From Parcubacteria group bacterium GW2011_GWA2_47_26 (lineage in GTDB: Bacteria > Patescibacteriota > Patescibacteriia > GWA2-47-26): 64,000 bases of DNA. The stretch spans positions 20,056 through 84,055 of the forward strand of contig LCOG01000002.1 of assembly GCA_001001705.1 (NCBI GenBank), given 5' to 3'. Every line of letters begins with the position of its first letter. Position 1 is the stretch's first letter. Position numbers and translations under genes: made by a program. Positions 3,127 to 35,752 of the stretch are shown one piece after another. The notes beneath the pieces were generated by a model. It ran no database searches and was not told the origin of the DNA. It worked only from the letters and a program-made list of their open reading frames with translations.

Positions 3127-3130
3127 TCTA

Positions 3131-16803: not shown

Positions 16804-16923
16804 TCCCGTTAGAAGCCGCGGTCGCGATACATTGGAGAGCTAAATATTATGCAAAAGGTCTATATTATAACAACAAACATTAACCAGCAGATCGGGAAGA
16901 CCGCGACCTGCTTCTAACGGGAT
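16804..16923. repeat. Family B element between the ArsR-family gene and nifS, ending on nifS ATG
   Basis: TCCCGTTAGAAGCCGCGGTCGCG ... GAAGACCGCGACCTGCTTCTAACGGGAT|G. Confidence 0.8.
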
Positions 16924-18331: not shown

Positions 18332-18369
18332 TTTTGCAGAGCAAAATTTAGAAGTGGTCCCTTTTTCCT
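18313..18369. repeat. Family F element containing the nifS stop codon and the iscU ORF 5' end
   Basis: GAAAAAAGGACCGCCTCTAATTTTGCAGAGCAAAATTTAGAAGTGGTCCCTTTTTCC. Confidence 0.8.
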
Positions 18370-19633: not shown

Positions 19634-20605
19634 ATGACAATAGGGGAGGCTTTGAAGTGGGGCATAAAAAAACTCACTGGCTCTGGGGTGGACCCCGTTA
19701 GAGGCAGGTCGCCTCAAGGTGACCGTAGCACCGCCTTTGGCGGGGCGGCCTCTAACGGGGTAGATTCTCCTGCGCTGGATGCGGAGGTTATTTTAGCGCA
19801 TGTGCTCGGTGTTCCCCGCGCCGAGCTCTATATCCACCCCTTGACCACTCTACTACCGGCAGAAGCGGCGACATATAAAATTTTGATCAAGCGGCGTTTT
19901 AAGCGCGAGCCCGTCGCCTATATTACGGGTCATAAAGAATTTTACGGCATGGATTTCATCGTGGACAAATCTACGCTTATTCCTCGACCGGAAACCGAAA
20001 TGCTCGTGGAGGAAGCGCTAAAGGCGGTTAAGGCTAGGAACACAAAGACATTGTGTGTTGTTGATGTTGGCACTGGTTCGGGTTGTATTATTGTATCCTT
20101 AACTAAAATATTAAACCAAATAAGCCGCCACAAGACCTTGCATTTTTTTGCCACAGAGATCTCACCGCAAGCTCTTAAAATAGCCAAGCTCAACGCCAAA
20201 CGCCATAGTCTTGCTGATAAAATAGTTTTTAGAAAAGGCTATTTGCTCAAACCGATCTTATCCAATCTAGAAAAAACGGTACCGCAATCAAGATTATTGA
20301 TTACGGCAAACTTGCCCTATTTGCCTACAGCCGAGTGGCGGCGCGCCATGGAAGACGTGCATTATGAACCGCGCCAAGCTCTGGATGGCGGTAAAGACGG
20401 ACTAGAATACTACCGGCATTTGTTTGAGCAATTAAAATCCTGGCGCGGCATTAAAAAATTTGCTAACGTGGCCGTGCTCGCTGAAATTGATCCGCATCAG
20501 GTTAATGAATTTACAACTCTGATAAAATCATTTTTCTCGCGAGCCAGTTTATCAATCAAAAAAGATCTGGCCAGCCTTGATCGAGTTGCGATCGCGGTAC
20601 TATGA
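19634..20605 (+). CDS. prmC: Release-factor glutamine methyltransferase PrmC/HemK (in-frame family C element)
   Basis: VVDVGTGSGCI SAM motif, NLPYLP (NPPY-type) motif. Confidence 0.8.
   Translation: MTIGEALKWGIKKLTGSGVDPVRGRSPQGDRSTAFGGAASNGVDSPALDAEVILAHVLGVPRAELYIHPLTTLLPAEAATYKILIKRRFKREPVAYITGHKEFYGMDFIVDKSTLIPRPETEMLVEEALKAVKARNTKTLCVVDVGTGSGCIIVSLTKILNQISRHKTLHFFATEISPQALKIAKLNAKRHSLADKIVFRKGYLLKPILSNLEKTVPQSRLLITANLPYLPTAEWRRAMEDVHYEPRQALDGGKDGLEYYRHLFEQLKSWRGIKKFANVAVLAEIDPHQVNEFTTLIKSFFSRASLSIKKDLASLDRVAIAVL
19687..19762. repeat. Family C element within prmC
   Basis: GGTGGACCCCGTTAGAGGCAGGTCGCCTCAAGGTGACCGTAGCACCGCCTTTGGCGGGGCGGCCTCTAACGGGGTAGA. Confidence 0.8.
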
Positions 20606-20669: not shown

Positions 20670-23267
20670 ATGGAGCTCCTGATGAAGTTTGTGAGCAGGG
20701 CATGGCGCAAGCTGAAACAGCCTAAGGTTTTAGGCATTGTTTTAGTTGTGGCTTTTGCGGCGTTGATTGTTGCACCAGTGTTGGCACAACCAAGAATAGA
20801 CGTCCCCACTCCCGCCGAACCAACTCTGCCGGACTTTGTTGAAAAGACTATTATAGCTTTAGCTCAAGCTTATTTGCGATTGGTTCAGCCTCTGCTGAAC
20901 TCTTTGATTAGCCAAGTAGTTTGGGTCTCTGGCTATAGCGATTTTGTCAATTCTCTGCCGGTCGTGACTGGTTGGGTAATTGTGCGCGATATTGCCAACA
21001 TGTTCTTTATTATTGTGCTTTTAATCGTGGCATTTGGCACAATTTTAGGGCAAGAACAGTACCATTACAAAAAACTTTTGCCAAAACTTTTGCTTTTGGC
21101 CATACTGGTAAATTTCTCGCGCACCATTGTCGGAGTTTTTACTGACGCGGCGCAAGTAGTCATGCTGACTTTTGTTAATGGTTATTCTGCCTCGGCCGGC
21201 GGCAATTTCGCCCAAATGTTTGGAATTACAGAACTGCTCAAAGCGGACGCCTCGTGTCTTCAGCTTACCGCGGGCGGCGCCTTGAATGTTCAAACGCAAA
21301 CAGTCGGATTTTTATTAGCCGCAATTTTGGTAACCATCTCTGTAATTACGGTATTTGTTGTTTTGGCCGTGCTGATTTTACGCGTGATAATGCTCTGGCT
21401 TTTGACTATTTTATCACCAATTGCTTTTTTAACCGGGACTTTTCCGCAAGGGCAAAAATATTATGCGCAGTGGTGGAAGGAATTTACTGATCAGGCCGTG
21501 GTTGGGCCAATGCTGGCGTTTTTCCTGTGGTTGTCTTTGGTTACGGCTGGCGGAGGAAACGCCTATACTATCATCAATACTTCCAACGCCGTGCAATTAG
21601 ATGCTGCCCAGAGCGCGCCAACCGGCTGTACTTCCGCAGGCACAGCTCCCGCCCTCGCCTCCTTTATCATCAGCATCATGATGCTTTTGGCCGGCGTGCA
21701 AATGTCCCAGCAAATGGGCGGGGCCATCTCCGGAGTCGCCGGCCGGGCCAAAGGTTTTGCCACCAAATTCGCCAAATCAGGGTTTGGAGCGCGGTACGCT
21801 TGGAAATATGGGGGCAAACAGACGGCCGGGTTCCTTGATCGCCAGCAAGGACGTTTCACCGGTATTCAGTTTGCCAAGATTCCGGGAAGATTTAAGGAAG
21901 CCTTGAAAGAAAGGCGCGAGAAAAACGAACAGGCCATAAAGGATAGGGGTTATAGATTGGCCGGAGCGGCCCAAAAATATGTGGGAGCATTACCTATTGC
22001 AGGGCGTCCTTTGGCCGGAATATATGGAGCTTTGGCAGCACCTGATGTTTTGGTCAAGAGTTTTTTGACCAGAGGAATTATGGCGCGGACGGCCCGAGGA
22101 TTACAAGGCAGCGCATTGTATAAATTCCGGCATGCTGACAAAGCAGAAAAAGAGCGGAAGCAAGCAGGGGTCATTGATGAAGGTTTGGCAACTGAAAAAA
22201 CACAATATGAAATCAATAAGTCAAATTTAGATGTGCTTGCACAAAATAGAGCTCGGTATGCGGTACTTTCTTCAAGGGCTACGGCTGGTACCGCCCTCAC
22301 CCCTGCAGAGCTAGTAGAACAAGCGGAGTTAACCGCTGCGATTACAGCGGCGGCACCTGATGAAATAAGATGGCGGACAGATACAGGCACATATGAAGAT
22401 ATTTCAGCAGAAAATAGCCGCGCCACAAGCAGGCAAAAATCAGCTCGGCTCAACGCAAGCGCTGCAAAATCAGAAGGAAAATACGCGCGCGGAGAGGTGC
22501 GCTATGATGTGGCGCGTGAAAATGTGCAGTTTCGACAAGAAAGCGAAGCGCAAAAGACCGTAGATCTTACCAGATCCACTAATGAACTGATAGGAGATCT
22601 TGAGCGTGCAGTTGCAAAACGCGACCAGGCTACTGCCGCATTGCTTTCTAAAACAATTGCCCAGCGCGGAGATACTGGAGATATGCTGAAGCGTTTTGGA
22701 ATTACCGCTACCGGCGTAGCGGGTTTGCATGAATATAAAAACAATGTTTTGCGCAAGCAAGCAGGCCTTGATCAATCATACGCTGATAAAACAGCAGTAC
22801 GTATGTCTGAACACGCCTGGAAAGCTGGGGATATGGATTATGGCAATGCCTATAGAGTTGATCCAATTACCAATGAAGTGAAAGAACAATCGGGCGATGA
22901 AGCGGCTAATATTTCTGCAAAGCGCATGGAGGGCAAGAGCATCTCGTCTATTCTTTCTTCGATTAAACCAGGAGCGTTGAGCGAAACTACTTCAGATGGC
23001 AAGGAACGCATGTCCGGAGTAGCCGCGGCATTGCTTGCGCGCACCAACTCCGAATCGCCAAGAGTCTTGGCCGATCTTTTGCGGCGCGGATTATTCCCCG
23101 CGGAAATTATGAGAGTTATGAAAGGGCAATTGGGAGTATTGGAGACATTGGCTAGCGCGGGCACGCTTAGGCCCGAAATTGTAGAGGGAATTAGAACTGC
23201 ACCGGTCGCCCCGCCTGGACTTTCAACCGAAAATATTGTATCGGAAATTTTAAGGGTAAGGTCGTGA
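20670..23267 (+). CDS. Large polytopic membrane protein with long hydrophilic C-terminal domain; VirB6/TrbL-like candidate
   Basis: Signal/TM then at least 5 TM helices, Ala/Lys-rich coiled C-terminus; neighbourhood with VirB4. Confidence 0.4.
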   Translation: MELLMKFVSRAWRKLKQPKVLGIVLVVAFAALIVAPVLAQPRIDVPTPAEPTLPDFVEKTIIALAQAYLRLVQPLLNSLISQVVWVSGYSDFVNSLPVVTGWVIVRDIANMFFIIVLLIVAFGTILGQEQYHYKKLLPKLLLLAILVNFSRTIVGVFTDAAQVVMLTFVNGYSASAGGNFAQMFGITELLKADASCLQLTAGGALNVQTQTVGFLLAAILVTISVITVFVVLAVLILRVIMLWLLTILSPIAFLTGTFPQGQKYYAQWWKEFTDQAVVGPMLAFFLWLSLVTAGGGNAYTIINTSNAVQLDAAQSAPTGCTSAGTAPALASFIISIMMLLAGVQMSQQMGGAISGVAGRAKGFATKFAKSGFGARYAWKYGGKQTAGFLDRQQGRFTGIQFAKIPGRFKEALKERREKNEQAIKDRGYRLAGAAQKYVGALPIAGRPLAGIYGALAAPDVLVKSFLTRGIMARTARGLQGSALYKFRHADKAEKERKQAGVIDEGLATEKTQYEINKSNLDVLAQNRARYAVLSSRATAGTALTPAELVEQAELTAAITAAAPDEIRWRTDTGTYEDISAENSRATSRQKSARLNASAAKSEGKYARGEVRYDVARENVQFRQESEAQKTVDLTRSTNELIGDLERAVAKRDQATAALLSKTIAQRGDTGDMLKRFGITATGVAGLHEYKNNVLRKQAGLDQSYADKTAVRMSEHAWKAGDMDYGNAYRVDPITNEVKEQSGDEAANISAKRMEGKSISSILSSIKPGALSETTSDGKERMSGVAAALLARTNSESPRVLADLLRRGLFPAEIMRVMKGQLGVLETLASAGTLRPEIVEGIRTAPVAPPGLSTENIVSEILRVRS

Positions 23268-23300
23268 TAAGGCGATCCGAAAGACGATCATATTAATTAT

Positions 23301-24512
23301 ATGCCCAACATGCAAAGAATAAATTCAAAAGAATATGCAGAACAAGTAAAAACGACGGCGCGCAACCTAGCTATATTTGGCGATCGTGCCGGCGCGTTTG
23401 AGTTTGCGCGCGCGATTCAAGAATTATTAAAAAATCCGGAGCTAAACGCGGAGGTGCGCCCACTGTACGAAGATGCGGAGCGGGACGCCTTATTTGCCGC
23501 GATTCCTGTGCTTCCGGATCGTGAAGTTTTGCAAGGGCTGGAAAAACATCTTGCGTATTATCTTGGGCAAGAAAATTATGATTTGCTCTCGGTCATAAAA
23601 AGCAAGCTTTCAGGCATTGATATTGTTGAAGAACGTGATGCGTTCCGCGCGATGTTACGCGATTCTTTAATGAACGCGGACGGCAAAATTTCCGAAAAGA
23701 TTGAGTTGCTGGATGGAAGTCAGGAGGGATCCCCGCGTAATTGGCTGTCATATTATTTGCAAACTGTTGGCGGCGTAATTCCCGACACGTTTAAGCGCAC
23801 AGAGTTTATTGCCAGCCGTCCGGTTGAGCATGCAAAACCAGTAGAACAAGCGCGGCTTAAGCGATTGATTGAGTTGTTTGATTACTTGCGGCTTTCCTCG
23901 GCTACGGGCGCGGGTTTTGAGGAGGAATTAGTGGCGGATTTTGACGAGCGGATCATGATTTTGCAAGATGGCAAAGTCACGCAAATTGATCCCAAAACCG
24001 ATGAAATTATGAGCAAGACTATGCCGGCAATGCTCACGGCGTTAAAGCAAGCATGGGCCAGACAAGCCGCGCAGCCGACTGATTTAGAAAAAGAAGCGCG
24101 GGAGCAGGCCAAAAGCCTTAATCCCGCTCAAAGCCAGCAAACAATCGCGGAGATTTTTACAGCCAAGAGTTCTAAAGATCAAAAAAACGGATTAGCGGCT
24201 TTATATGGCGCGATTGGCGGCGGTTTGGATATATTTCTCAAACAGATTTTGCCGACTTTACAAGCTCATCTTAAAGATGCGCCTGAAGCAGAGCGGAGCG
24301 CTTCGCTTTTGCAAAGCGGACTGATTACTCCAGCGGTGGCCAAAATATTCTTGCGGATTTATTTGGAAAAACTTTTGGGTTTTTCTATGGACCATGCCGC
24401 GGCTTTGGTTGGGCGCATGTTGGGCACTTTGTCTCCGGCAGAGCGCGACAAATACTTCAAGGTTGCTTATTACGATTTTGAAAAAGGCTGGTTTGTTTGG
24501 GGCGAAGTTTAA
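23301..24512 (+). CDS. Hypothetical protein
   Basis: Long ORF, no recognisable motif. Confidence 0.55.
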   Translation: MPNMQRINSKEYAEQVKTTARNLAIFGDRAGAFEFARAIQELLKNPELNAEVRPLYEDAERDALFAAIPVLPDREVLQGLEKHLAYYLGQENYDLLSVIKSKLSGIDIVEERDAFRAMLRDSLMNADGKISEKIELLDGSQEGSPRNWLSYYLQTVGGVIPDTFKRTEFIASRPVEHAKPVEQARLKRLIELFDYLRLSSATGAGFEEELVADFDERIMILQDGKVTQIDPKTDEIMSKTMPAMLTALKQAWARQAAQPTDLEKEAREQAKSLNPAQSQQTIAEIFTAKSSKDQKNGLAALYGAIGGGLDIFLKQILPTLQAHLKDAPEAERSASLLQSGLITPAVAKIFLRIYLEKLLGFSMDHAAALVGRMLGTLSPAERDKYFKVAYYDFEKGWFVWGEV

Positions 24513-24619
24513 TTCCATTCAAGGTGCCTCGTTGATTATGTCCGATGAAATTTTAATCAAAGGTACCGATGGCCCGCCTACGTTTCTGCTCCGTTTTAAT
24601 TCCGAGCAATAAAAAAAGA

Positions 24620-24643
24620 CTAGCATACTCGCTAGTATGCTAG
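24620..24643. promoter_or_regulatory. Inverted repeat CTAGCATACT-cgct-AGTATGCTAG upstream of the TrpR/YerC-like gene
   Basis: 10-bp arms; same arms recur at 25305. Confidence 0.5.
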
Positions 24644-24690
24644 GACCATATTTCTAGCGTGTCATCAGATGTGCGCTTAGACTATAGCCT

Positions 24691-25308
24691 ATGGCAAAAT
24701 TTAGTTCCCGACAAAGACTGGACCATAAACAGCGGCAAAAGGTATTGCTCGAGCTTTGCCATGCGTTAGTTGTGGTCAAGAAATTGGATGAAGCCGCTAA
24801 AGTGCTTGGCGATTTATTATCTGACCAAGAAATTGAAATGATTGCTAAGCGTTTGCAAATTGCAAAATTCTTGCTTCAGGACAAGAAGTACGAGGAAATT
24901 ATGGAGCAGTTAAAAGTTAGTGCTACTACTATTGCCCGAGTAAACCTTTGGCTCCAACAGGCCGGTGATGGGTTTCGGATGGTGATGTCCCGTGGGCTCG
25001 CTAAGAACAGTGTCAAGATTCCGGAGTGGCAGCCTCCGGCACGCAAAAGCGAAATGGCACGACGTTTCCCGCTTTATTATTGGCTGCAGGGATTGCTGGA
25101 AGGCATTATCCGCGCCGCAAATAATCGTCAGCGTGCAAAGATGCTGGAGACGCTCAAAGTGTTGAGGGTTTCTGGTAAAGGCAAGCGCGAAGTGTTTCGC
25201 TATGTGGAAGAGCTGATTCATAATCAGCAACGGAGCCCAAATCCGCGTCGTTTGCGGTCACTTGAGCTTGAAAAGGAAATGCAATTGGAGAAAGTAAAAC
25301 AATACTAG
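24691..25308 (+). CDS. TrpR/YerC/YecD-like DNA-binding protein
   Basis: LSDQEIEMIAKRLQIAKFLLQDKKYEEIMEQLKVSATTIARV helix-turn-helix resembling the Trp-repressor-like YerC family. Confidence 0.55.
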   Translation: MAKFSSRQRLDHKQRQKVLLELCHALVVVKKLDEAAKVLGDLLSDQEIEMIAKRLQIAKFLLQDKKYEEIMEQLKVSATTIARVNLWLQQAGDGFRMVMSRGLAKNSVKIPEWQPPARKSEMARRFPLYYWLQGLLEGIIRAANNRQRAKMLETLKVLRVSGKGKREVFRYVEELIHNQQRSPNPRRLRSLELEKEMQLEKVKQY

Positions 25309-25328
25309 CATACTAGCTAGTATGCTAG
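25305..25328. promoter_or_regulatory. Perfect palindrome CTAGCATACTAGCTAGTATGCTAG overlapping the stop codon of the TrpR-like gene
   Basis: Second copy of the same dyad; extends to a 30-bp perfect palindrome. Confidence 0.5.
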
Positions 25329-25472
25329 TATTAGCCAGATCAGATTCGGATCTTGCAAATCTTGTAAAAAAAGGACGGGATCACAAAAAGGCCCTTGCGG
25401 GCCCTTCGGATGAATTATCTATAATTTATAATAACACATGGGGTATAATTGTCAAGGATGGGGTGTGGATAG

Positions 25473-26807
25473 GTGAACACTATGCAAGATGAAATTTTAG
25501 TTAAAGGCACAGATGGGAAGTGGTATCTTCTGCAAGGGGAGGAGTTGGTGCCGTATGGGGCAGGTACGCAGGGACCAGATAAGCAGGCGGCAGGCGTGAA
25601 ACAAGAGTTGCCTAAAGGGGTGACAGAAGAGAGGCATAAAAAATTGGAAAAGGTGACCAAAGCGGTAGAGGAGCCACATGTGGCAAAAGAAATTTTCTTG
25701 CCAGCCGTAGCTACTCCGCCCCTTCCGGCTGTTTCTGCTCCCGCGCTTCGTGACTTGGTCACTGCCGCAGGCGCAACACGTGACCAAGTCACAGCTCCGG
25801 CCTATATTCCGCCGGAGTTGCCCGAATTAGTCGCGCCTGCTTTGGGGCCGGTAACACACGAAGGACATCCTTTATATAAGGAATTGCAGGAGCTTGTGGA
25901 TCAGGTGGTAAGTGAGAGCGCCGAAATAATTCGCGCTCAAGCGCCAGCTTGGGACGAAATTTTGCAAAAACGTTTCCGGTTCGTGATCTCGGCACGTTTG
26001 CGGGATATGCGGGACGCGGCAGAAACCAAAGCCTTGATATTGCGTGATCAGAAGATTGGTGGTTTAGGTTTGCGCGAGGCAGACGCGCAAAAGGTCACGG
26101 AGTTTACCGAGCGCGTTTTTCAAGAATTTCAAAAAAAGTGGCAAGAGTTTGAGGCAAAGCGCATTGAAGAATGGAAGCGCAAGAAGCGCGAAGAAGCGGC
26201 TCATAGCGAAGAAGTTTGCAAGAAAAAAGAAGAGCAGGAGATGGAGGAGAGATACGCCCGCCTTACAGGCGAGGTTGCAAAAGTGGCAGAGGTGGCAAAT
26301 GAGCCAAAGATTAAGGTACCCAAACCTCAAACCTCAAACCTCAAACCTCAAACAGCCCCAAATATTAAAGCTCAAAAGCCAAGGATAATAGAGCAATCCA
26401 GAACATCTGTCACTTCTGAAACATTTGCAACATCTGTGACTTTGCCGCGAAGCAGCAAAGTCACAGATGTCCGTACCCCGCCGAAACTCTTGGGACCGGT
26501 GGAGGAACTGCAAAGCATAAGCCCCCAAGATTTTAGACGGCTGGGCGCGCCTGGCGAGGCAACTGCAAAAATCAAGGCCAAAGTAGATTTTTTGGCGCAA
26601 GAATCATTTACAAAATACAGAAATGGAATCAAGGCTTGGCAAAGTTCGCCACTGCACAGACTGTATTTATTCATTAGCGGAATATCCTTACGGGAACGCA
26701 AGAGTATTGAGCAAGTTATAGGTGATTTACAGGTGCAAAACAAAGACACACTCACACCTGACGAATTTCATGCTATAATGGAGTTGAATAAACAATTGAG
26801 GTTTTAA
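25473..26807 (+). CDS. Hypothetical K/E-rich coiled-coil protein with PQTSNLK repeats
   Basis: Long ORF; contains an in-frame family D element and a 7-nt tandem repeat. Confidence 0.55.
   Translation: MNTMQDEILVKGTDGKWYLLQGEELVPYGAGTQGPDKQAAGVKQELPKGVTEERHKKLEKVTKAVEEPHVAKEIFLPAVATPPLPAVSAPALRDLVTAAGATRDQVTAPAYIPPELPELVAPALGPVTHEGHPLYKELQELVDQVVSESAEIIRAQAPAWDEILQKRFRFVISARLRDMRDAAETKALILRDQKIGGLGLREADAQKVTEFTERVFQEFQKKWQEFEAKRIEEWKRKKREEAAHSEEVCKKKEEQEMEERYARLTGEVAKVAEVANEPKIKVPKPQTSNLKPQTAPNIKAQKPRIIEQSRTSVTSETFATSVTLPRSSKVTDVRTPPKLLGPVEELQSISPQDFRRLGAPGEATAKIKAKVDFLAQESFTKYRNGIKAWQSSPLHRLYLFISGISLRERKSIEQVIGDLQVQNKDTLTPDEFHAIMELNKQLRF
25750..25791. repeat. Family D element within the 25473 gene
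   Basis: GTGACTTGGTCACTGCCGCAGGCGCAACACGTGACCAAGTCAC. Confidence 0.8.
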
Positions 26808-26816
26808 GGTATGCAA

Positions 26817-27020
26817 TCCCGTTAGAAGCCGCGGTCGTTGGTTTGTGGAGTAGATAATATTCATATGCAGAAAGGTCAAATGGTTTTAATAAATAACCTC
26901 GCAGGGCGGGCGACCGCGACCTGTCCCGTTAGAAGTGTTGTTCTAACGGGTAATCAATCAGGAGTCTGGGGAGTGTTCAGTATTATGGGCACTTCTAACG
27001 GGACCTGCTTCTAACGGGAT
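26817..27020. repeat. Family B element (expanded/composite) ending on the ATG of the PrgI-like gene
   Basis: ATCCCGTTAGAAGCCGCGGTCG ... GGCGACCGCGACCTGTCCCGTTAGAAGTGTTGTTCTAACGGG ... ACTTCTAACGGGACCTGCTTCTAACGGGAT|G. Confidence 0.75.
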
Positions 27021-27444
27021 GCAACAATTCGTCGTCCCCCAATTCATTGATGTTGAGGATAAGATCATCGGCCCGATTACCACGCGGCAGTTTATTATTA
27101 TGCTTGTCGTGGGACTGGCAATTTTTATCTTCTATAAAATACTGGCCTTTATTCCTTTTGTAATCTCGGCAATCCTTTTGTTCGGTGCCGGAGGAGTAAT
27201 TGCATTCTTGCGCATTAATGGTCAACCCTTTCATTTTTTTCTGCTTAACGTCTTTCAGACTTCGCGCCGGCCAAAATTAAAAGTTTGGAACAAAGAACTG
27301 ACTGACGCGGAATTAAGAGAAAGATTAACTGCTCCACTGCCGCCGCATCCACTGCCGCCGCCGCGCAAAGAATTGTTGACCACTTCACGGCTGAACGAGA
27401 TAGCGCTGGTCGTGGACACTGGCGGTGTTTATACGCCGGAATAA
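27019..27444 (+). CDS. PrgI/VirB3-like small membrane protein (T4SS component candidate)
   Basis: 141 aa, two hydrophobic helices, immediately upstream of and overlapping VirB4. Confidence 0.5.
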   Translation: MQQFVVPQFIDVEDKIIGPITTRQFIIMLVVGLAIFIFYKILAFIPFVISAILLFGAGGVIAFLRINGQPFHFFLLNVFQTSRRPKLKVWNKELTDAELRERLTAPLPPHPLPPPRKELLTTSRLNEIALVVDTGGVYTPE

Positions 27445-28147
27445 TATGCCCGAAATGCAATCAAAAAAATTAGCCGGAGCCAAACCCGGGCCCGCAGTCC
27501 AGCAGTATCTTGATATTGCGGAAATAAAAGAAGATGTAGTGGTTTTAAAAGATGGAACCCTGCGGGCCGTGCTCGCGGTTGCTTCAGTAAATTTCGGTTT
27601 AAAGTCCGAAGATGAACAAAATGCCACCATCTCCGCCTATGTGCAATTTATCAATGCTCTAGAGCATCCTTTGCAGATCGTGATTCAGTCCCGCAAGCTT
27701 AATATTGATGAGTATATAAATCGCCTGGAGCGCGCGGAGCATGAGCAGACCAATGATCTTCTGCGTCTGCAGATTACAAACTACCGCTCTTTTATTAAAG
27801 AATTGGTTGAACTCGGCGAAATAATGTCTAAACGTTTTTTTCTTGTTGTGCCATACTCGCCATTATCCGATAAACGCAAAGGGTTTTGGTCTAGGTTTTC
27901 AGAGCTTTTGCGTCCGCTAGTTACCGTGCGCATTCGAGAAGAGCGTTTTCGCGCTCATCGCGGAGCTCTTTTGCAAAGAGTCTCACATGTGCAAAACGGG
28001 CTGTCTTCCATTGGGCTGAAATCACAAGCGCTGGATACCCAAGCTTTGATTGAGTTGTACTACAGGGTTTATAATCCTGATATCGCTGAAGTGGAAAAAT
28101 TGCAGGATCTGGCTAAGATTAAGACTGAAGAGTCGTACGCGGTCTGA
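27425..28147 (+). CDS. virB4: VirB4/TrsE/PrgJ-family ATPase, N-terminal portion (split gene)
   Basis: N-terminal domain typical of Gram-positive VirB4 homologues; ends at TGA directly before a family G element. Confidence 0.65.
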   Translation: MFIRRNNMPEMQSKKLAGAKPGPAVQQYLDIAEIKEDVVVLKDGTLRAVLAVASVNFGLKSEDEQNATISAYVQFINALEHPLQIVIQSRKLNIDEYINRLERAEHEQTNDLLRLQITNYRSFIKELVELGEIMSKRFFLVVPYSPLSDKRKGFWSRFSELLRPLVTVRIREERFRAHRGALLQRVSHVQNGLSSIGLKSQALDTQALIELYYRVYNPDIAEVEKLQDLAKIKTEESYAV

Positions 28148-28149
28148 TT

Positions 28150-28235
28150 ATGTAGCATGTAGCCTGTAACATATAACACAAGATTGAAATTGAGTACGCT
28201 CTTGGGTTACATGCTACATGTTATAAGTTTACATG
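28150..28235. repeat. Family G hairpin element separating the two virB4 ORFs
   Basis: ATGTAGCATGTAGCCTGTAACATATAACACAAG...TTACATGCTACATGTTATAAGTTTACA. Confidence 0.7.
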
Positions 28236-28239
28236 ATTT

Positions 28240-30114
28240 ATGCCTTTACTCGGTAAGAAAAAACCCCCGATAGCTATCGGGGCGCCCCAGGTGACTGTGG
28301 CGGCGCAAAAAGCCAAAGCGGCCGAAGAGCGCATCGTGCTTGAAGAAGAGCGCGTATATCGGCGCGGTGTAGTTTCAGTGCGCGATATTATAGCGCCGGC
28401 TTCCATGCAGCTGACGCCTTCTTTTGTGAAGCTGGGCGATGTTTTTGTGCGCACCATTTTTGTCGTTTCTTATCCTCGCTATATCGCAGTGGGTTGGTTT
28501 ACGCCCATTGTTAATTTGCCGGTAACTTTGGATATTGGTATGTTTTTCTATCCGGTTAAGTCCGATGTTATTTTGAAGCAATTGAAGAAGAAAGTCGGCA
28601 CGCTTGAGGCCCAAGTTATTGCTGATTCGGAAAAAGGCGCTCCGCGCGATCCGATTCGCGAGACCGCCTTGCGCGATATTGAAAAGTTGCGCGACGATTT
28701 GACCCAAGGGACAGAAAAGTTTTTCCAGTTCGCTCTTTATGCGACAATTTACGCAAAAGACAAAGCCGAGCTGGAAAAGCTGACCGAGGATATAGAAGCG
28801 CTCTTCGGCAGCAAATTGATTTATTCTAAAAAAGTATTTTTCCAGGCGGAGCAAGGCTTTAATTCCACAATTCCGTTAGGCAATGACGAACTCATGATTG
28901 CCTTTAACATGAATTCCTCCCCGATTGCCTCTTCGTTTCCGTTTATCTCCGCGGATTTAACCTCGGATAACGGCATTCTCTACGGCATTAACCGTCACAA
29001 CAATAGCCTCATCCTGTTTGATCGTTTTTCTCTGCAGAATGCCAATTTCGTGGTCTTTGCCACCTCTGGCGCCGGTAAAAGCTATACCATGAAATTGGAA
29101 ATTTTGCGCTCTTTAATGCTTGGCACAGACGTAATTGTGATTGACCCGGAAATGGAATACAAGCATTTATCCGACGCGGTTGGCGGCACCTATATAAATA
29201 TTTCCCTGGCGGGCGAGGCCAAAGTAAATCCTTTTGATCTTTCGCGCCCGGTTGGCGAAGAGGTTAAGACCGAAGATATAATCCGTTCCGCGGTTATCAC
29301 GATTAAAGGATTGTTAAAAATAATGCTTGGTCAATTTACCCATGAAGAAGATGCCCTGATGGATCGCGCGCTTATTGAGACTTATGCGAAAAAAGACATT
29401 ACCGCCACCTCTGATCTTTCTAAAGTGGAGGCGCCAATTATGTCTGATTTGCAAGAAGTGCTGGAGGGCATGGAAGGCGGGGCTTCTTTGGCCGAGCGGC
29501 TGAAAAAATATACGACTGGAACATTTGGCAGTCTTATCAATAGCCCGACCAATGTTGATATGCGCAACCAGTTAGTGGTTTTCTCTGTTCGCGATTTGGA
29601 GGACGAGTTGCGGCCGATTGCCATTTACTCGTTAGTCAATTATATCTGGAATGTGGTGCGCTCGGAGCGCAAGAAAAGAATTTTGACCATTGATGAGGCT
29701 TGGTGGCTTATGCAAAATGAGGATTCGGCAAAATTCATTTTTGCGCTTGTTAAACGCGCGCGAAAATATTATCTTGGAGTAACAACCATTACGCAGGATG
29801 TAAACGACTTCCTGCTTAATCCTTACGGTAAAGCGATTGTAACCAACTCCGCCCTCCAGTTGCTTTTGAAGCAATCGCCCGCCGCTATCGATCTAGTCCA
29901 GCAGACCTTTATGCTTACTGAAGGGGAGAAATATTTACTTTTGGAATGTGCGGTTGGAGAAGGCATCTTTTTTGCCGGCGCAAAACACGCCGCTATAAAA
30001 GTCGTGGCTTCCTACGCCGAAGATCAGCTTGTTACGACCGACCCTCGCCAACTGCTTGAGCTGGAGGCGGCTAAGAAAGAATTTGAGGAACAAATGATGC
30101 CTAAGGGCCTATGA
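28240..30114 (+). CDS. virB4: VirB4/TrsE/PrgJ-family ATPase, C-terminal ATPase portion (split gene)
   Basis: Walker A FATSGAGKSYTM, Walker B ILTIDEAWWLM, conserved C-terminal motifs. Confidence 0.85.
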   Translation: MPLLGKKKPPIAIGAPQVTVAAQKAKAAEERIVLEEERVYRRGVVSVRDIIAPASMQLTPSFVKLGDVFVRTIFVVSYPRYIAVGWFTPIVNLPVTLDIGMFFYPVKSDVILKQLKKKVGTLEAQVIADSEKGAPRDPIRETALRDIEKLRDDLTQGTEKFFQFALYATIYAKDKAELEKLTEDIEALFGSKLIYSKKVFFQAEQGFNSTIPLGNDELMIAFNMNSSPIASSFPFISADLTSDNGILYGINRHNNSLILFDRFSLQNANFVVFATSGAGKSYTMKLEILRSLMLGTDVIVIDPEMEYKHLSDAVGGTYINISLAGEAKVNPFDLSRPVGEEVKTEDIIRSAVITIKGLLKIMLGQFTHEEDALMDRALIETYAKKDITATSDLSKVEAPIMSDLQEVLEGMEGGASLAERLKKYTTGTFGSLINSPTNVDMRNQLVVFSVRDLEDELRPIAIYSLVNYIWNVVRSERKKRILTIDEAWWLMQNEDSAKFIFALVKRARKYYLGVTTITQDVNDFLLNPYGKAIVTNSALQLLLKQSPAAIDLVQQTFMLTEGEKYLLLECAVGEGIFFAGAKHAAIKVVASYAEDQLVTTDPRQLLELEAAKKEFEEQMMPKGL

Positions 30115-30178
30115 CATGTAGCCTGTAACATGTAGCTCAAGGTCTTGTGTTATATGTTACAAGTTATAAGTTACAAAA
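30112..30178. repeat. Family G element after virB4
   Basis: ATGACATGTAGCCTGTAACATGTAGCTCAAGGTCTTGTGTTATATGTTACAAGTTATAAGTTACA. Confidence 0.7.
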
Positions 30179-30184
30179 ACCCAT

Positions 30185-30781
30185 ATGTCTCGCCGCACTA
30201 AAATAATCCTCGTAAGCGTTATAGTGATAATTATTTTGATTATACTTTTCTGGTTGATTTGGATAGGGCCGCAAATGTTGCGGCGCAATACAACAAATGT
30301 GCCCGCGCCACCACTAGAAACTCAAGGCGGGCTTGCCTTGCCTCTGTCGCCCGCAACTCCTCTCGGCGCGGCGCCGCAGACCGCCGAAGTCGGCGCGGAA
30401 GTGGCCCAGGCCTCGCTTGAAGCTTTTGCGCGCTCCTTTATTGAACGCTACGGCAGTTATTCCAACCAAAGCAATTATGACAATCTTGAAGATTTATATC
30501 CTTTTATGACTAAAAATCTTCAGCAATCAACTCAAGATTTTGTGCAAAGTGAACGGGCTAAAATGCGGACGCAAACACCAGCTTATTTTGGCATTACTAC
30601 GCGAGTATTATCTAGCATGGTGTCTCTATTGAATGATGATCGCGCCGGACTAGTTATTAAGACGCAACGGCGCGAGTCTGGCTCTGACCCGAACGCTTCG
30701 CGGCTCTATTATCAAGATGTAGAACTGAAACTAGTAATGGTGGGGGAGCAATGGAAAGTTGATGTGGCGGAATGGCAATAA
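30185..30781 (+). CDS. Bitopic membrane protein, VirB8-like (NTF2-like) candidate
   Basis: Short cytoplasmic N-term, one TM, ~150-aa external domain; position after VirB4. Confidence 0.35.
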   Translation: MSRRTKIILVSVIVIIILIILFWLIWIGPQMLRRNTTNVPAPPLETQGGLALPLSPATPLGAAPQTAEVGAEVAQASLEAFARSFIERYGSYSNQSNYDNLEDLYPFMTKNLQQSTQDFVQSERAKMRTQTPAYFGITTRVLSSMVSLLNDDRAGLVIKTQRRESGSDPNASRLYYQDVELKLVMVGEQWKVDVAEWQ

Positions 30782-31502
30782 AATGGTACGGCTTATGCTG
30801 TTTCAGAGGTGCATAAACTTTACCATTGATACCCTTTTCCCCATCGAATGCCTGGGATGTAAAAAAGAAGGCGAGTGGTTATGTCAGGACTGTTTGGCAA
30901 AAATTCCCATTGAAACCAAGGAGGACTGTTTTGTTTGCAAAAAACCGTCCGCCGGCGGTAAAACTTGTTTTTCCTGTCAACGCAATTTTTCACTTCAAAG
31001 CGTGGCATGGTTAACAGATTACGACAATGCCTTAGTGCACCGGGCGCTTCATATAGCCAAATATGGATATGTTAAGGCAGTATTAGTCGCGCTTCTCAAT
31101 AGTTTAGTGCCGCATCTATCTCATAAGTTTAGATTTTTTGATCTTGATCCGCGGGCGGTCATGTTTATACCCGTTCCCTTGCATCTGCGTCGTTTGCGGG
31201 ATCGCGGATTTAATCAGGCGCAAATTGTAGCCGAGTCATTTGCTCGCGCGACTAATGGCATTTGCGTAAACGCATTGACGCGGAGACGTTTTACAATACC
31301 GCAGGTTAAGCTTGACGAGGCGGATCGGGCGAGAAATATTAAAGGAGTTTTCAAATGCCTAGATCAAGCAACCGTCGCCGATCACTATGTGTTTATTGTA
31401 GATGATGTGGCAACAAGCGGAGCAACACTCAATGCTTGCGGCGAAGAGCTACAAAAAGCCGGAGCGCGAGGAGTATTTGGATTGGTAATTGCGAAGGGTT
31501 GA
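30759..31502 (+). CDS. comFC: Competence protein ComFC (phosphoribosyltransferase-domain DNA-uptake protein)
   Basis: N-terminal double CxxC zinc finger, C-terminal PRTase motif VFIVDDVATSGATL. Confidence 0.8.
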   Translation: MMWRNGNKMVRLMLFQRCINFTIDTLFPIECLGCKKEGEWLCQDCLAKIPIETKEDCFVCKKPSAGGKTCFSCQRNFSLQSVAWLTDYDNALVHRALHIAKYGYVKAVLVALLNSLVPHLSHKFRFFDLDPRAVMFIPVPLHLRRLRDRGFNQAQIVAESFARATNGICVNALTRRRFTIPQVKLDEADRARNIKGVFKCLDQATVADHYVFIVDDVATSGATLNACGEELQKAGARGVFGLVIAKG

Positions 31503-31733: not shown

Positions 31734-32243
31734 GTGGTATACTTTAATACTATGCCAGAGACAGAAACTAAACAATACGGTAAAGAACTTTTATCCTGGG
31801 AAGCGGATGAATACAGTCAAGGACACAAGGGTCTTTTGTGGTATTTTATGGCGACCATCGCGGCCGTTGCTTTTCTTATCTGGGCAGTGGCCACTCGCAA
31901 TTTTTTATTCGCTTTCATCGTAATCATGTTCGCGGTAATTACCGCAACCCATGCCCTGCGTCCGCCAATGCGCTATCGTATCGGCCTTTTTGAGCGCGGA
32001 TTAGTTTTTGGAACCAGGCTCTATCTATGGAAAGATATAAAAAACTTCTGGATTGTCTACGAACCGCCAGAAGTAAAAACGCTTTACTTTGATTTTGGGG
32101 GCTTGCGTCCGCGTTTGCCTGTGCCACTTATAGACACTGACCCCAATCGCGTACGCAAAACTTTACAGGAATTTTTGATGGAAGACGTTGAACGGATCGA
32201 AGAACCTTTGTCTGATTGGGTTGCGCGGGTGCTGAAGTTATAA
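31734..32243 (+). CDS. Hypothetical membrane protein (two TM helices)
   Basis: ORF with hydrophobic segments; no motif recognised. Confidence 0.5.
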   Translation: MVYFNTMPETETKQYGKELLSWEADEYSQGHKGLLWYFMATIAAVAFLIWAVATRNFLFAFIVIMFAVITATHALRPPMRYRIGLFERGLVFGTRLYLWKDIKNFWIVYEPPEVKTLYFDFGGLRPRLPVPLIDTDPNRVRKTLQEFLMEDVERIEEPLSDWVARVLKL

Positions 32244-32408: not shown

Positions 32409-34697
32409 ATGATCCGCTATAACTTATCAAGTCCAGTAAGTGCACTATCGCATATTGGCCGCACCGTGGAGACTCAACTGCGACACCTAGGAGTTCTCAC
32501 CATACAGGATCTCCTTTTTTATTTTCCGGTTCGCTACGACGATTTGCGCAATATCACCGAGATTAAAGATTTAAAAATCGGCGAAAGGGCAGTAGTGCGT
32601 GGAAAAATTGAGCTTATTCAAAGCCGCCGCAGCAAATATAGAAAGAAACTCCTTACCGAGGCCATTGTCTCTGATGCGACGGGCAGTTTAAAAATACTTT
32701 GGTTTGGCCAGCCTTGGCTAATTAAAATGTTTAAAACCGGCGATGAGCTGTATTTGGTTGGCGAAGTTAAAGACGATGGCTCCGGCGCGTATATGTCCTC
32801 GCCAAGCTATGAGCGCGCAAGCGGGCACGCGACAATTCATACGGGCCGCATTGTGCCAGTTTACGCTTTGACCGAAAAGCTTTCTCAAAAACAAGTGCGT
32901 TTTTTAATGAGTCGCGCTTTTCCGCTCGCTTCGAGCATAGTTGATTGGCTGTCTCAAGATTTGAGGACAAGATACAAATTATTGGATTTAAAACGCGCTA
33001 TTTCTTTTGTGCATTTTCCGCCGGATAATCAAAAAATGGAAGCGGCCCGGCGGCGTTTGAAATTTGATGAATTGCTGCGCTTGCAGATTTTTGCCGCTAA
33101 AGTAAAACAGGAACTCAAAAAATTACCCGCCCCGAAAGCGGTATTTAATGAGAAGGCGACAAAGCAATTTGTACAAGGCTTGCCTTTTGAGTTAACCGAG
33201 GCGCAACGCAAAGCGGCCTGGGAAATTGTCAAAGATATTAGTCGGCCGCGCCCAATGAATCGTTTGCTGGAGGGCGATGTTGGATCGGGAAAGACTGTCG
33301 TGGTTGCGATTGCGGCATTGAATGCGGTTGGTGTTTGTGACCATGTCACCGCGGCTAGTGACCTGGTCACAAACAAAGGTCAGGTGGCCATTATGGCGCC
33401 GACCGAAATTTTGGCGCGTCAACATTTCAAAACATTTTCAAAATTACTTGGACCCCATGGTGTGCAAGTAGAGTTACGCACCAGCAGTGAAAAAGGTAAA
33501 AAGGGGATTATAGACAGCAATGTAGTTGTGGGAACACATGCTTTAATACAAGACAGTGTAAAGTTCAAAGATTTGGTGCTCGCGGTTGTTGATGAACAGC
33601 ACCGTTTTGGCGTGCGTCAACGGCAAGCGCTCAAGGATAAGCGCGAGGATGGAAAAATGCCCCATCTGCTTACTTTGACCGCCACGCCAATCCCGCGTAG
33701 TTTGGCTTTAGTATTTTATGGCGATCTTGATCTCTCCGTGCTTAATGAAATGCCCAAGGGGCGGCAGAGAATTGAAACCGTGTTGGTAAGTAACGCTTCC
33801 CAACCCCCTCCTCATAAACCCACCCACCCTCCCCTTAAGTTAAGGGGAGGAGGCGAAAAAGGGACCGCCTCTAATTTTGCAAAGCAAAACTTAGAAGTGG
33901 TCCCTTTTTCGCGGGAACAGGCCTATCAATTTATCCGTACTGAAGTTGCCGCCGGCCACCAAGTCTTTTGGACATGCCCGATTATTGATCCTTCCGACAC
34001 GCTTGGTGTAAGAGCCGCGACCGAAGTATTTGAGCATTTGCGCACCGAAATTTTTTCTGATCTGCGCATTGGACTCTTACACGGGCGCATGAAGTCAAAA
34101 GAAAGAGAAAAAGTGATGGAAGCGTTTGTAGGCCCATCTTGTCATCATGAGCGTAGCGAAGGATCTCGGGATTCTTCGCCTGCGGTTCAGAATGACAGAG
34201 GACACACGATTGATATTCTCGTAGCCACGCCGGTTATTGAAGTTGGTATTGATGTGCCTAATGCTACAGTCATGGTTATTGAAGGAGCACAGCGTTTTGG
34301 CTTAGCCCAGCTTCATCAATTTCGCGGACGCGTTGGCCGGGGCGAGGCGAAATCGTATTGTTTGTTGATGGTGGAAGAAAAAGGGACCGCCTCTAATTTT
34401 GCTGCGCAAAATTTAGAAGTGGTCCCTTTTTCTGCGCGTATCAAGGCATTTTTAGAGTGCGACAATGGTTTTGAACTCGCCGAGCGCGATTTGACGCTTC
34501 GCGGTCCTGGCGATACTTATGGCATTGCCCAATCCGGTTTTCCGGAATTCAAAATCGCGAGTTTCGCGGATGTTGAAATTGCCAAAGAGGCCAAAGAAGC
34601 GGCGGAGGTGATTTTAACGCGCGATCCGGAACTTACGAACTATTCCGAGCTCAAACAGGCGATACTTGATAAAGAAGGCCGGACGCATTTAGAATAA
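32409..34697 (+). CDS. recG: ATP-dependent DNA helicase RecG carrying five in-frame palindromic elements
   Basis: Wedge domain, Walker A GDVGSGKT, DEQH box, helicase C motifs QFRGRVGR. Confidence 0.9.
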   Translation: MIRYNLSSPVSALSHIGRTVETQLRHLGVLTIQDLLFYFPVRYDDLRNITEIKDLKIGERAVVRGKIELIQSRRSKYRKKLLTEAIVSDATGSLKILWFGQPWLIKMFKTGDELYLVGEVKDDGSGAYMSSPSYERASGHATIHTGRIVPVYALTEKLSQKQVRFLMSRAFPLASSIVDWLSQDLRTRYKLLDLKRAISFVHFPPDNQKMEAARRRLKFDELLRLQIFAAKVKQELKKLPAPKAVFNEKATKQFVQGLPFELTEAQRKAAWEIVKDISRPRPMNRLLEGDVGSGKTVVVAIAALNAVGVCDHVTAASDLVTNKGQVAIMAPTEILARQHFKTFSKLLGPHGVQVELRTSSEKGKKGIIDSNVVVGTHALIQDSVKFKDLVLAVVDEQHRFGVRQRQALKDKREDGKMPHLLTLTATPIPRSLALVFYGDLDLSVLNEMPKGRQRIETVLVSNASQPPPHKPTHPPLKLRGGGEKGTASNFAKQNLEVVPFSREQAYQFIRTEVAAGHQVFWTCPIIDPSDTLGVRAATEVFEHLRTEIFSDLRIGLLHGRMKSKEREKVMEAFVGPSCHHERSEGSRDSSPAVQNDRGHTIDILVATPVIEVGIDVPNATVMVIEGAQRFGLAQLHQFRGRVGRGEAKSYCLLMVEEKGTASNFAAQNLEVVPFSARIKAFLECDNGFELAERDLTLRGPGDTYGIAQSGFPEFKIASFADVEIAKEAKEAAEVILTRDPELTNYSELKQAILDKEGRTHLE
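33337..33370. repeat. Family D short element within recG
   Basis: GTGACCATGTCACCGCGGCTAGTGACCTGGTCAC. Confidence 0.65.
33793..33854. repeat. Family E unit within recG, directly abutting a family F element
   Basis: CCCAACCCCCTCCTCATAAACCCACCCACCCTCCCCTTAAGTTAAGGGGAGGAGGCG. Confidence 0.65.
33855..33910. repeat. Family F element within recG (copy 1)
   Basis: GAAAAAGGGACCGCCTCTAATTTTGCAAAGCAAAACTTAGAAGTGGTCCCTTTTTC. Confidence 0.8.
34141..34197. repeat. Family A element (short form) within recG
   Basis: GTCATCATGAGCGTAGCGAAGGATCTCGGGATTCTTCGCCTGCGGTTCAGAATGAC. Confidence 0.8.
34376..34432. repeat. Family F element within recG (copy 2)
   Basis: GAAAAAGGGACCGCCTCTAATTTTGCTGCGCAAAATTTAGAAGTGGTCCCTTTTTCT. 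Confidence 0.8.
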
Positions 34698-34698
34698 G

Positions 34699-34775
34699 GA
34701 AAAGAGAACGCCTCTAGTAAAAAAGAGAACGCCTCTAATTTTGCTGCGCAAAATTTAGAAGTGGTCCCTTTTTCT
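34699..34775. repeat. Family F element with partial left-arm duplication, just after recG stop
   Basis: AAAAGAGAACGCCTCTAGTAAAAAAGAGAACGCCTCTAATTTTGCTGCGCAAAATTTAGAAGTGGTCCCTTTTTC. Confidence 0.75.
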
Positions 34776-34873
34776 GCCCAGCCGGTATATATGCCCCGTG
34801 TCAAATCATCTAATCATGACACCGAACCGTACACTTGGGTATACGGAGAGTGCCACAATATGCTTTCCAAAAC

Positions 34874-34909
34874 GTCCCGTGTTTGGCTCGATCGAGCCAA
34901 ACACGGGAC
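34874..34909. repeat. 36-bp perfect palindrome GTCCCGTGTTTGGCTCGATCGAGCCAAACACGGGAC
   Basis: Direct reading; followed by tandem GAAACGTCATAGG x2 at 34922..34950. Confidence 0.7.
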
Positions 34910-35254
34910 GAGTAGCGTTAAGGAAACGTCATAGGGAAACGTCATAGGGAACTAGGGTATAATTTTAGATGATTTAATTTATGACAATTTAATTTGTGCA
35001 CTTGACGCAGGATGGCCTGCTATTGTAGTATGTCAAAATTACCGCGTTGGTCAGGGGTTTTAAGTAAATGAGCCCCCTCACTAGCGCGGTAATAAATTAG
35101 CGTAAACACAGTGAACACATGGGCTGCCCACCCAAGCCGGGTGTTGTGCCAACCTTTTGATGGAGGAGCGGGGCGAATTAGCTGACACGATCCGCCACTA
35201 CGCGGGGGGTCACGAAGTACAAGCAACCTCGGACCGAAGAGGGGATCTGCAACA

Positions 35255-35516
35255 AATGAGTACGAACAACGGCAACGGTCAGAGCGGTGGGAACGGCCAC
35301 CATGGCAAGTTCCAGTCGTGCAACAACGACTTCTGCCTCCGCAATGGAGGCGTGATCGCGCCCGGCGAGTCGTGCCAGCGCGTGGGGAGCGAGCTCTTCC
35401 ACGCGGGCTGCTACCAGCTCTGGCAGCAGCACGTGGCGGAGCGTCAACGCCGTTTCGGTGGCGACGCCTCGATCCGCCACCGCACGCGCGCGGCGGTCAA
35501 CACCCTCGTCCCGTAG
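35255..35516 (+). CDS. Small Cys-containing protein encoded in a high-GC segment (start uncertain; ORF track 35157)
   Basis: GC3 about 90% in this frame versus about 50% in flanking genes; followed by a hairpin terminator. Confidence 0.3.
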
Positions 35517-35667: not shown

Positions 35668-35752
35668 GATGGGGTCCGATCACGGTGACTCGTGAGAAGC
35701 CTTATCAACAATTTAATCGTACTTGGATTCAAAAATTTAGAGCAACAATTAT

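Follow-up and report, generated by a model that had tools for sequence, protein, structure and literature searches.

A block of nine co-directional open reading frames (ORFs) on the plus strand of a 64,000-nt stretch of DNA from Parcubacteria group bacterium GW2011_GWA2_47_26 (contig LCOG01000002.1) encodes the inner-membrane core of a monoderm, MPF_FATA-like type IV secretion system (T4SS), namely a VirB6-like protein, a PrgI/VirB3-like protein, VirB4 together with a TrsD-like protein, and a VirB8-like protein. The whole stretch is referred to here as the window, and the block occupies its positions 20670-31502. The genes are packed as in an operon, their synteny is conserved among relatives, the motifs of the ATPase are intact and conjugation-specific genes are absent from the locus. 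It is very probable that the block is a chromosomal, vertically inherited T4SS of the Patescibacteria clade, in the arrangement typical of class ABY1, and that it serves, most likely, contact-dependent exchange with a host. All ORFs named in an original prediction, made from the sequence alone, are present on the plus strand at the positions it gave, but its gene order has to be corrected: the actual succession is an 865-aa protein, a 403-aa protein, a TrpR-like regulator, a 444-aa protein and PrgI, with the regulator lying between the two hypothetical proteins. Its description of the module as minimal understates the set, which also includes the TrsD-like protein and the conserved family of the 444-aa protein.

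Conservation was assessed in 80 related loci obtained by a VirB4 scan of species-representative genomes, against which the window proteins were searched with tblastn. VirB4 of these relatives is 72-84% identical to that of the window, and the titled loci come from Uhrbacteria, Falkowbacteria, Magasanikbacteria and unnamed Patescibacteria. TrsD and VirB4 find a match in all 80 loci, PrgI and the VirB8-like protein in 75 each and the 444-aa protein in 74; the corresponding numbers are 54 for ComFC, 52 for the VirB6-like protein, 27 for RecG and 25 for a small membrane ORF beside RecG, and they fall to 14, 13 and 1 for the 403-aa protein, a pilin-M23 fusion and the TrpR-like regulator, respectively. 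The gene neighbourhood of the block thus recurs in relatives.

The core components and the pilin gene

The VirB4 ATPase (624 aa, 28240-30114) matches P-loop_TraG (1.1e-27), AAA_10 and, weakly, CagE_TrbE_VirB in Pfam, and it exceeds the cutoff of the NCBIfam model conju_CD1110, which describes VirB4-like conjugal transfer ATPases of the CD1110 family (335.1 bits against 325, over model positions 172-729 of 752). Its Walker A (GAGKS) and Walker B (ILTIDEAW) motifs are intact in the translation. Positions 2-96 of the same model are covered by the TrsD-like protein, which is encoded directly upstream (27446-28147) and measures 233 aa from its ATG or 240 aa from a GTG at 27425. This protein also aligns with positions 111-233 of the 894 of a mycoplasma VirB4 model and with positions 15-142 of the 201 of TrsD NF041427 (5.2e-7). 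A database search gave 4,922 homologues, of which the best 120 are all about 216-251 aa long, several of them bearing names such as 'TraC family' or 'VirB4 component'. By these alignments, the TrsD-like protein corresponds to the N-terminal part of a monoderm VirB4, encoded as a gene of its own, and the two genes together make up one such protein. The two ORFs lie in different frames with a spacer of 92 nt between them; this split is not a frameshift, because all 80 related loci likewise have two distinct ORFs here (gap usually 1-10 nt, median ~5 nt). The VirB4 ATPase of the original prediction is therefore upheld by the conju_CD1110 score, but corresponds to two ORFs, the TrsD-like piece and the 624-aa ATPase.

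The 141-aa protein encoded at 27019-27444 was correctly predicted to be PrgI/VirB3-like: it matches PrgI PF12666 with 33.6 bits (gathering score 27; model positions 8-87 of 91), and TcpE weakly in Pfam. It is a small membrane protein whose one long hydrophobic stretch, residues 16-67, is consistent with a helical hairpin. Its gene, said to overlap VirB4, abuts or overlaps the TrsD-like gene and not that of the ATPase.

The first gene of the block (20670-23267) encodes a polytopic membrane protein of 865 aa with about six hydrophobic segments between residues 15 and 347, followed by a hydrophilic tail of ~500 aa. Neither TrbL PF04610 nor any other Pfam family was found at E ≤1 with this protein, and NCBIfam gave no match either, while four of 27 aligned homologues touch TrbL/VirB6 (best 7.8e-5). 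Profile searches of the family against the Protein Data Bank (PDB) returned nothing but low-complexity matches to the charged tail. An AlphaFold2 model of residues 1-410, computed from the 27-homologue alignment, has a mean predicted local distance difference test score (pLDDT) of 79.6, and TrwI chains hold the first five places of the Foldseek search made with it; PDB chain 7o3v_F was confirmed as TrwI/VirB6 by searching the R388 trwI product (NC_028464) against the PDB. With an N-terminal VirB6 fold predicted over residues ~1-350 and a long hydrophilic tail, the protein fits the type that a recent review calls 'extended VirB6' (PMC12857230). Topology and modelled fold thus favour the VirB6/TrbL-like call of the original prediction, but the TrbL PF04610 sequence match on which it could have relied failed.

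The case of the 198-aa protein (30185-30781), whose gene directly follows virB4 in 75 of the 80 loci, is similar. VirB8 PF04335 matches it at 0.072 (13.3 bits, gathering score 23.2) and TcpC PF12642 at 0.0032 (17.7 bits, gathering score 27), and one of its homologues carries a precomputed PF04335 match. Its sequence is 100% identical to that of UX17_C0030G0020 from Parcubacteria group bacterium GW2011_GWC2_45_7. The protein is bitopic, with a transmembrane helix within residues 1-34, then a Pro-rich linker and an alpha+beta NTF2-like domain (AlphaFold2 pLDDT 87.1). The best Foldseek matches of the model are CagV (1.5e-4), PrgL, TrwG, TcpC, Rickettsia VirB8 and an IcmL-like protein. Because generic NTF2 proteins score nearly as well, the VirB8-like assignment rests on fold, topology and position jointly; size, topology, fold and position agree with what had been predicted, but the VirB8 PF04335 score lies below its gathering score.

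A gene outside the block would supply the pilin. It is found at 35884-37458 on the minus strand, 4.4 kb downstream of the block and 5.8 kb from the end of virB4, and encodes a 524-aa VirB2-like pilin/M23-like fusion; in 13 of the 80 loci such a gene is found no more than 10 kb from virB4. T4SS_pilin PF18895 matches residues 245-300 with 33.8 bits (gathering score 26.6), two transmembrane helices are present, and there is a weak match to the Mbov_0395 pilin-like family. Peptidase_M23 scores 21.7 bits (2.4e-4), under its gathering score of 28.7. The original prediction of a downstream VirB2-like/M23 gene on the opposite strand is accordingly sound for the pilin domain and less so for the M23 domain. 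The fusion also carries a signal peptide, and its N-terminal ~200 aa are rich in Cys. In its M23-like domain, the HxxxD motif (HAGID) is kept and HLE stands in place of HxH as the second metal motif; the domain may be a non-catalytic or variant peptidoglycan-binding module.

Genomic setting, comFC linkage and related systems

The last gene of the block, comFC, starts within the VirB8-like gene (30759/30762-31502, 247/246 aa), overlapping it by 20-23 nt. Its product combines a double zinc ribbon with a phosphoribosyltransferase fold: DZR_2 matches at 5.4e-7 (29.8 bits, gathering score 27) and Pribosyltran at 8.4e-6 (25.6 bits, just under the gathering score of 26.3), and the CxxC motifs and the sequence VDDVATSGAT are visible in the translation. 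Among full-length models, comF TIGR00201 (1.2e-18, 67.8 bits, cutoff 233.55) and GntX (7.6e-22) both match below their cutoffs. Of the 66 loci whose sequence extends 900 bp or more beyond the VirB8-like gene, 48 (~73%) have comFC as the very next gene, which bears out the predicted linkage of T4SS and comFC as a conserved one. In the window, recG lies 0.9 kb beyond comFC. Since the same operon stands beside comFC in most of the 80 relatives, and beside recG in about a third, its inheritance is taken to be vertical.

The surroundings of the block are those of a chromosome. Upstream are found the genes for DnaG, RpoD, tRNA-Asn, UvrD, IscS, NifU, AhpC and PrmC; downstream are two tRNA-Ser genes and those for RecG, DsbA, an HtpX-like protein, LemA, PGM, both PheRS subunits and others. 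The GC content is flat at 0.45-0.49, and it is 0.46-0.48 in the block against 0.42-0.50 across the window. Pfam scans covered ~50 of the 64 window ORFs of at least 130 aa, most of the remainder being nested in larger ORFs of the opposite strand or of another frame, and no relaxase, VirD4/type IV coupling protein (T4CP), VirB11 or integrase was detected in the scanned ORFs, nor in ~8 kb of sequence that precede the window on its contig. The sole T2SSE-family ATPase among the scanned ORFs is PilB, within a type IV pilus cluster at the start of the window. The predicted absence of relaxase, VirD4 and VirB11 is therefore confirmed within this scope. Because of the housekeeping flanks, the flat GC content and the lack of relaxase, coupling protein, VirB11 and integrase genes among the scanned ORFs of the window, the block is not an integrative conjugative element (ICE), and it was rightly described beforehand as a stripped-down, Gram-positive-style, non-conjugative T4SS.

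The closest known system is the Patescibacteria T4SS itself, which was already described in 2025, together with its gene arrangement; the window adds no new kind of system. In the survey of 3,035 Patescibacteria genomes by Quiñonero-Coronel et al. (Microb Genom 2025, PMC12102498), VirB4 forms a monophyletic Patescibacteria clade nested in MPF_FATA, divided into class-specific clades with rare transfer. There, TrsD is the most abundant associated component, and PrgI/VirB3 and VirB6 homologues are found near virB4, as are VirB2-like pilins; VirB1-like proteins sometimes have M23 domains, and the very few VirB8 homologues are almost all from class ABY1, in which the T4SS is often co-localised with comF, recG and radA (PMC12102498). 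Relaxases number 109, in 103 genomes (PMC12102498). The window has the same set of VirB4, TrsD, PrgI/VirB3, VirB6, VirB8 and VirB2-like pilin, likewise chromosomal, with no relaxase at the locus and with comF and recG adjoining. Nothing essential differs from the ABY1 arrangement of that survey, the local peculiarities of the window being a TrpR/YerC insertion with CTAG palindromes, three repeat-filled spacers and the pilin-M23 fusion.

Genetic evidence is at hand for one member only, the T4SS of Southlakia epibionticum (SEML1_0006-0019, Saccharimonadia), whose genes are essential for epibiotic growth of this Saccharibacterium (Wang et al., Cell 2023, PMC10633639). It is Gram-positive-like and has VirB3/4/6-like parts, TrsD and VirB2-like pilins, and its cluster holds no recognisable relaxase or coupling protein, all as in the window. 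It differs in belonging to another class, in having six separate pilin genes where the window has a single pilin-M23 fusion, and in carrying peptidase/lysozyme genes as the immediate neighbours downstream of virB4; a search for structural homologues of VirB8 found none in it and comFC linkage was not reported, whereas the window has a clear VirB8-like gene. With the conjugative MPF_FATA systems of monoderms (TrsC/TrsD/TrsE of pGO1, PrgH/I/J/L of pCF10, the CD1110-type conjugative transposon of C. difficile), the window shares a VirB4 above the CD1110-family cutoff, a VirB3 of the PrgI family, a PrgL/TcpC-like NTF2 VirB8 and the absence of outer-membrane parts, and pGO1 likewise has TrsD and VirB4 as two genes. 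Unlike these systems, it has no relaxase, T4CP, PrgB adhesin or oriT context, and it is chromosomal and vertically inherited; conversely, its VirB2-like pilin has no counterpart in Gram-positive conjugation systems. More distant likenesses are to the Helicobacter pylori ComB system, which acts with ComEC and ComFC, and to the archaeal Ced system, both T4SS-derived, relaxase-free and working beside competence proteins. The ComFC of H. pylori handles single-stranded DNA at the cytoplasmic face. ComB differs from the window in being a diderm VirB2-4/6-10 system that is not encoded next to comFC; as to Ced, the window VirB4 matches CedB at 1.5e-10 with 40.3 bits (cutoff 700) and CedD with 18.3 bits (cutoff 600).

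Other genes and repeats of the window

A nearly constant partner of the core genes is a soluble protein of 444 aa (25473-26807), encoded immediately upstream of prgI in 74 of the 80 related loci. It has no match in Pfam, in NCBIfam or among PDB sequences and no transmembrane segment, and consists of a variable N-terminus, a helical module (residues ~160-210) and a C-terminal domain (~115 aa), the latter two conserved. A profile of this last domain found nothing in the PDB, nor did Pfam scans of 35 members find any family. The protein family counts 2,282 cluster representatives at E ≤1e-3; among the 150 matches listed, the conserved region is nearly always at the C-terminus of proteins of 239-825 aa. 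The family is not named in the consulted parts of PMC12102498. The 444-aa protein is a candidate for an uncharacterised T4SS component from this large unannotated family. The 403-aa protein (23301-24512) is a fast-evolving soluble protein of unknown function without a family match in Pfam or NCBIfam, and its gene is a positional partner of the VirB6-like gene. Only its C-terminal ~58 aa align (E 5e-7) with the product of the ORF that takes its place in locus L001, the closest relative.

Between these two genes lies that of a 205-aa helix-turn-helix regulator (24691-25308), which matches Trp_repressor in Pfam (8.4e-16) and scores above the cutoff of TIGR02531 YerC/YecD (55.9 bits against 42.2). 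A match was found in a single one of the 80 loci, elsewhere within that locus, and in L001 the ORF at this position is unrelated to it; on these grounds the regulator was rejected as a core part of the T4SS. The TrpR/YerC family identity of the original prediction stands, while the gene is local to the locus of this genome and not conserved with the module. Two 24-bp CTAG-rich palindromes flank it, one at 24620-24643, 48 nt upstream of its start codon, the other at 25305-25328, overlapping its stop codon and 145 nt upstream of the 444-aa gene (CTAGCATACTCG/CTAGTATGCTAG). The CTAG motifs stand at a spacing of 8 bp, an architecture that resembles that of TrpR operators. In the window, the motif occurs only at these two sites, with four half-site matches against 0.09 expected, and the second palindrome was also detected by a terminator scan, as a 15-pair stem. 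The palindromes are plausible candidate operators for the TrpR-like regulator; since the TrpR-like gene is absent from this position in relatives, they could alternatively mark the borders of a gene cassette that was inserted there.

Three spacers of the T4SS operon hold palindromic repeat elements. The first (26808-27018, 211 nt), before prgI, is filled with nested CCCGTTAGAAG/CTTCTAACGGG repeats in five motif copies and folds as RNA with -89.6 kcal/mol (z -6.3); in relatives, this gap is mostly ~1-30 nt. The second is the TrsD/VirB4 spacer of 92 nt (28148-28239), which contains a palindromic repeat hairpin (RNA fold -30.2 kcal/mol, z -2.84). Because the gap of relatives is mostly 1-10 nt, this spacer is considered a recent insertion, which might affect transcript processing or relative expression. 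The third, between virB4 and the VirB8-like gene (30115-30184), carries a second copy of the same palindromic family at 30111-30171, with an inverted repeat at 30114-30171.

Such elements are spread over the window in three families. One is a repeat of ~60 nt, GAAAAAGGGACCGCCTCTAATTTT...AAATTTAGAAGTGGTCCCTTTTTC, with at least six copies, found at 33853-33912 and 34365-34444 (recG), 15959-16016 (uvrD), 18310-18369 (iscS/nifU junction), 34725-34768 and 55592-55651. The recG copies are translated in frame as 'EKGTASNFA(K/A)QNLEVVPFS', and the RecG of relatives is without the segments encoded by them, the tblastn gaps (aa 463-499 and 656-676) falling exactly at the element positions. Another is the hairpin family CCCGTTAGA(A/G)G / C(T/C)TCTAACGGG, both intergenic and inside ORFs, at 6146-6260, 16805-16921, 19694-19759 (prmC, where it corresponds to residues ~21-42 of the protein), 26818-27018, 44483-44545 (an M50 protease gene) and 57968-58073. 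The last, to which the second and third T4SS spacers belong (ATGTAGC.TGTAGCCTGTAACAT / GTTACATGCTACATGTTAT), is present at 28148-28239, 30111-30171 and 50067-50158, upstream of rplJ. Repeat elements thus occur in frame inside RecG, UvrD, PrmC and the M50 protease, and these in-ORF repeats resemble the Rickettsia palindromic elements, which insert into coding genes; a literature search for elements of the Rickettsia type in the Candidate Phyla Radiation (CPR) found no report.

A few further features of the window and of the related records are worth recording. A complete type IV pilus cluster at 13-8294 encodes PilB, a response regulator, PilC, PilD (the prepilin peptidase) and at least four N-methyl pilins. 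In the complete contig it is preceded by PilM and RecJ; LigA, DnaG and RpoD come after it, and it ends ~12 kb before the T4SS block. The ORF of 169 aa at 31734-32243, with a hydrophobic N-terminal region and no family match, is the one found beside recG in 25 related loci, with 31-51% identity, so that it probably represents a genuine gene, its function being unknown. In the 1.2 kb between recG and the pilin-M23 gene (34698-35883), where the GC content is slightly higher (~0.50) and several perfect hairpins occur (for example 34873-34910), no convincing ORF was found, the best being one of 119 aa with a TTG start (35157-35516), and a permissive Rfam search gave only chance-level matches. Many records among the related loci are metagenome-assembled genomes from binchicken co-assemblies titled 'uncultured Gammaproteobacteria bacterium' (L004, L005, L008, L010, L011, L017, L022, L023 and others); they carry the CPR-type operon with the same synteny and VirB4 identities of 73-78%, by which these organism names look wrong.

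Function and rival explanations

Since the locus has neither relaxase nor coupling protein, the T4SS is not regarded as a conjugation apparatus, and by analogy with the Saccharibacterial system its role would most likely be contact-dependent exchange with the host cell. A possible mechanism can be sketched from R388 and pCF10 structures and from Saccharibacteria genetics. PrgI and the TrsD-like protein would dock a VirB4 hexamer to the membrane beneath a VirB6 oligomer, and the VirB8-like protein would form an extracytoplasmic collar. ATP hydrolysis by VirB4 could then drive the extraction and assembly of the VirB2-like pilin, the passage of substrate through the single membrane and the wall, or both, and the M23-like domain may open the peptidoglycan. 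The T4SS would be expressed together with a ComFC/RecG route for incoming DNA, which it might possibly feed.

Several points weigh against this interpretation. The placement in the Patescibacteria clade rests on the 72-84% identity to CPR VirB4 homologues. VirB6 and VirB8 were assigned from modelled structures and from the place of their genes, sequence hidden Markov models (HMMs) giving no match above a gathering score; in Foldseek, NTF2-like and helical-bundle folds match unrelated proteins too, at similar scores. The comFC adjacency is missing in 18 of 66 loci, so that the coupling is common and not obligatory. Moreover, according to PMC12102498, most Patescibacteria genomes have VirD4-like genes, usually far from virB4.

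The linkage to comFC and recG favours some tie to incoming DNA, and from it a different function can be derived, in which the T4SS is a dedicated DNA-import machine run in reverse, like ComB or Ced, that draws DNA of the host or the environment through the wall and passes single strands to ComFC at the membrane while RecG processes recombination intermediates, host contact being secondary. The overlap of comFC with the last T4SS gene, its place after that gene in 48 of 66 loci, the proximity of recG in 27 loci and the co-localisation of comF, recG and radA in ABY1 (PMC12102498) all speak for import, as do the absence from the window of relaxase and T4CP, both needed for DNA export, and the fact that CPR bacteria lack nucleotide synthesis (PMC10633639). 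Yet gene adjacency alone does not give the direction of transport, comFC is not beside the T4SS in 27% of loci, and DNA uptake usually relies on the type IV pilus, for which the window also holds a full cluster. The weak CedB match that could be invoked (1.5e-10) amounts to 40 bits, far under the cutoff of 700. In the Saccharibacterium, the T4SS is essential and comEC dispensable, its deletion abolishing competence with viability unharmed (2025 review, PMC12857230), which implies that the essential role there is not ComEC-dependent uptake. Import as the dedicated function is accordingly considered rather unlikely. A bolder version, in which the ABY1 T4SS, ComFC and the 444-aa family would work as a single importer, equivalent in a monoderm to ComB/Ced and taking host DNA, or nucleotides as DNA, with the 444-aa protein as a cytoplasmic adaptor replacing the coupling protein and ComFC receiving the incoming strand, is speculative and still less probable. 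If true, it would be the first T4SS-driven route of DNA uptake in a monoderm bacterium, and a direct means of nucleotide scavenging by CPR cells.

Two further explanations concern the origin and the state of the locus. That it belongs to an ordinary ICE or conjugative plasmid, or is what remains of one, and that the relaxase, coupling protein and integrase are encoded elsewhere, could be argued from the descent of the VirB4, PrgI and TrsD families from monoderm conjugation systems and from T4CP genes that can lie far from virB4 (PMC12102498). This origin was rejected on the housekeeping flanks, the flat composition and the synteny conserved beside comFC and recG; with no integrase or relaxase in the scanned ORFs, class-specific VirB4 clades and so few relaxases among the surveyed genomes (PMC12102498), it can be given only a very small probability. 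Decay of the locus, with VirB4 broken by a frameshift or insertion into a pseudogenised relic, is suggested by two ORFs in different frames around a spacer with a palindromic repeat and by the repeat elements of other operon spacers. However, the split is common to all 80 relatives and the best 120 of the 4,922 proteins homologous to the N-terminal piece stand alone, by which a frameshifted VirB4 pseudogene was rejected; the TrsD/VirB4 arrangement is a known one (NF041427; PMC12102498), both ORFs are full length, the ATPase shows neither internal stops nor lost catalytic residues, and the repeat insertions respect ORF boundaries. Decay is thus hardly credible.

The window offers a clean and fully resolved ABY1 example of this T4SS, with quantitative detail on the split of VirB4, the comFC linkage and the 444-aa family, and it raises the questions of the role of the 444-aa protein and of the physical coupling of ComFC to the machine. 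Knowing exactly which parts make up the T4SS matters because few systems enriched in the CPR have, like this one, been shown to be indispensable to epibiotic life.

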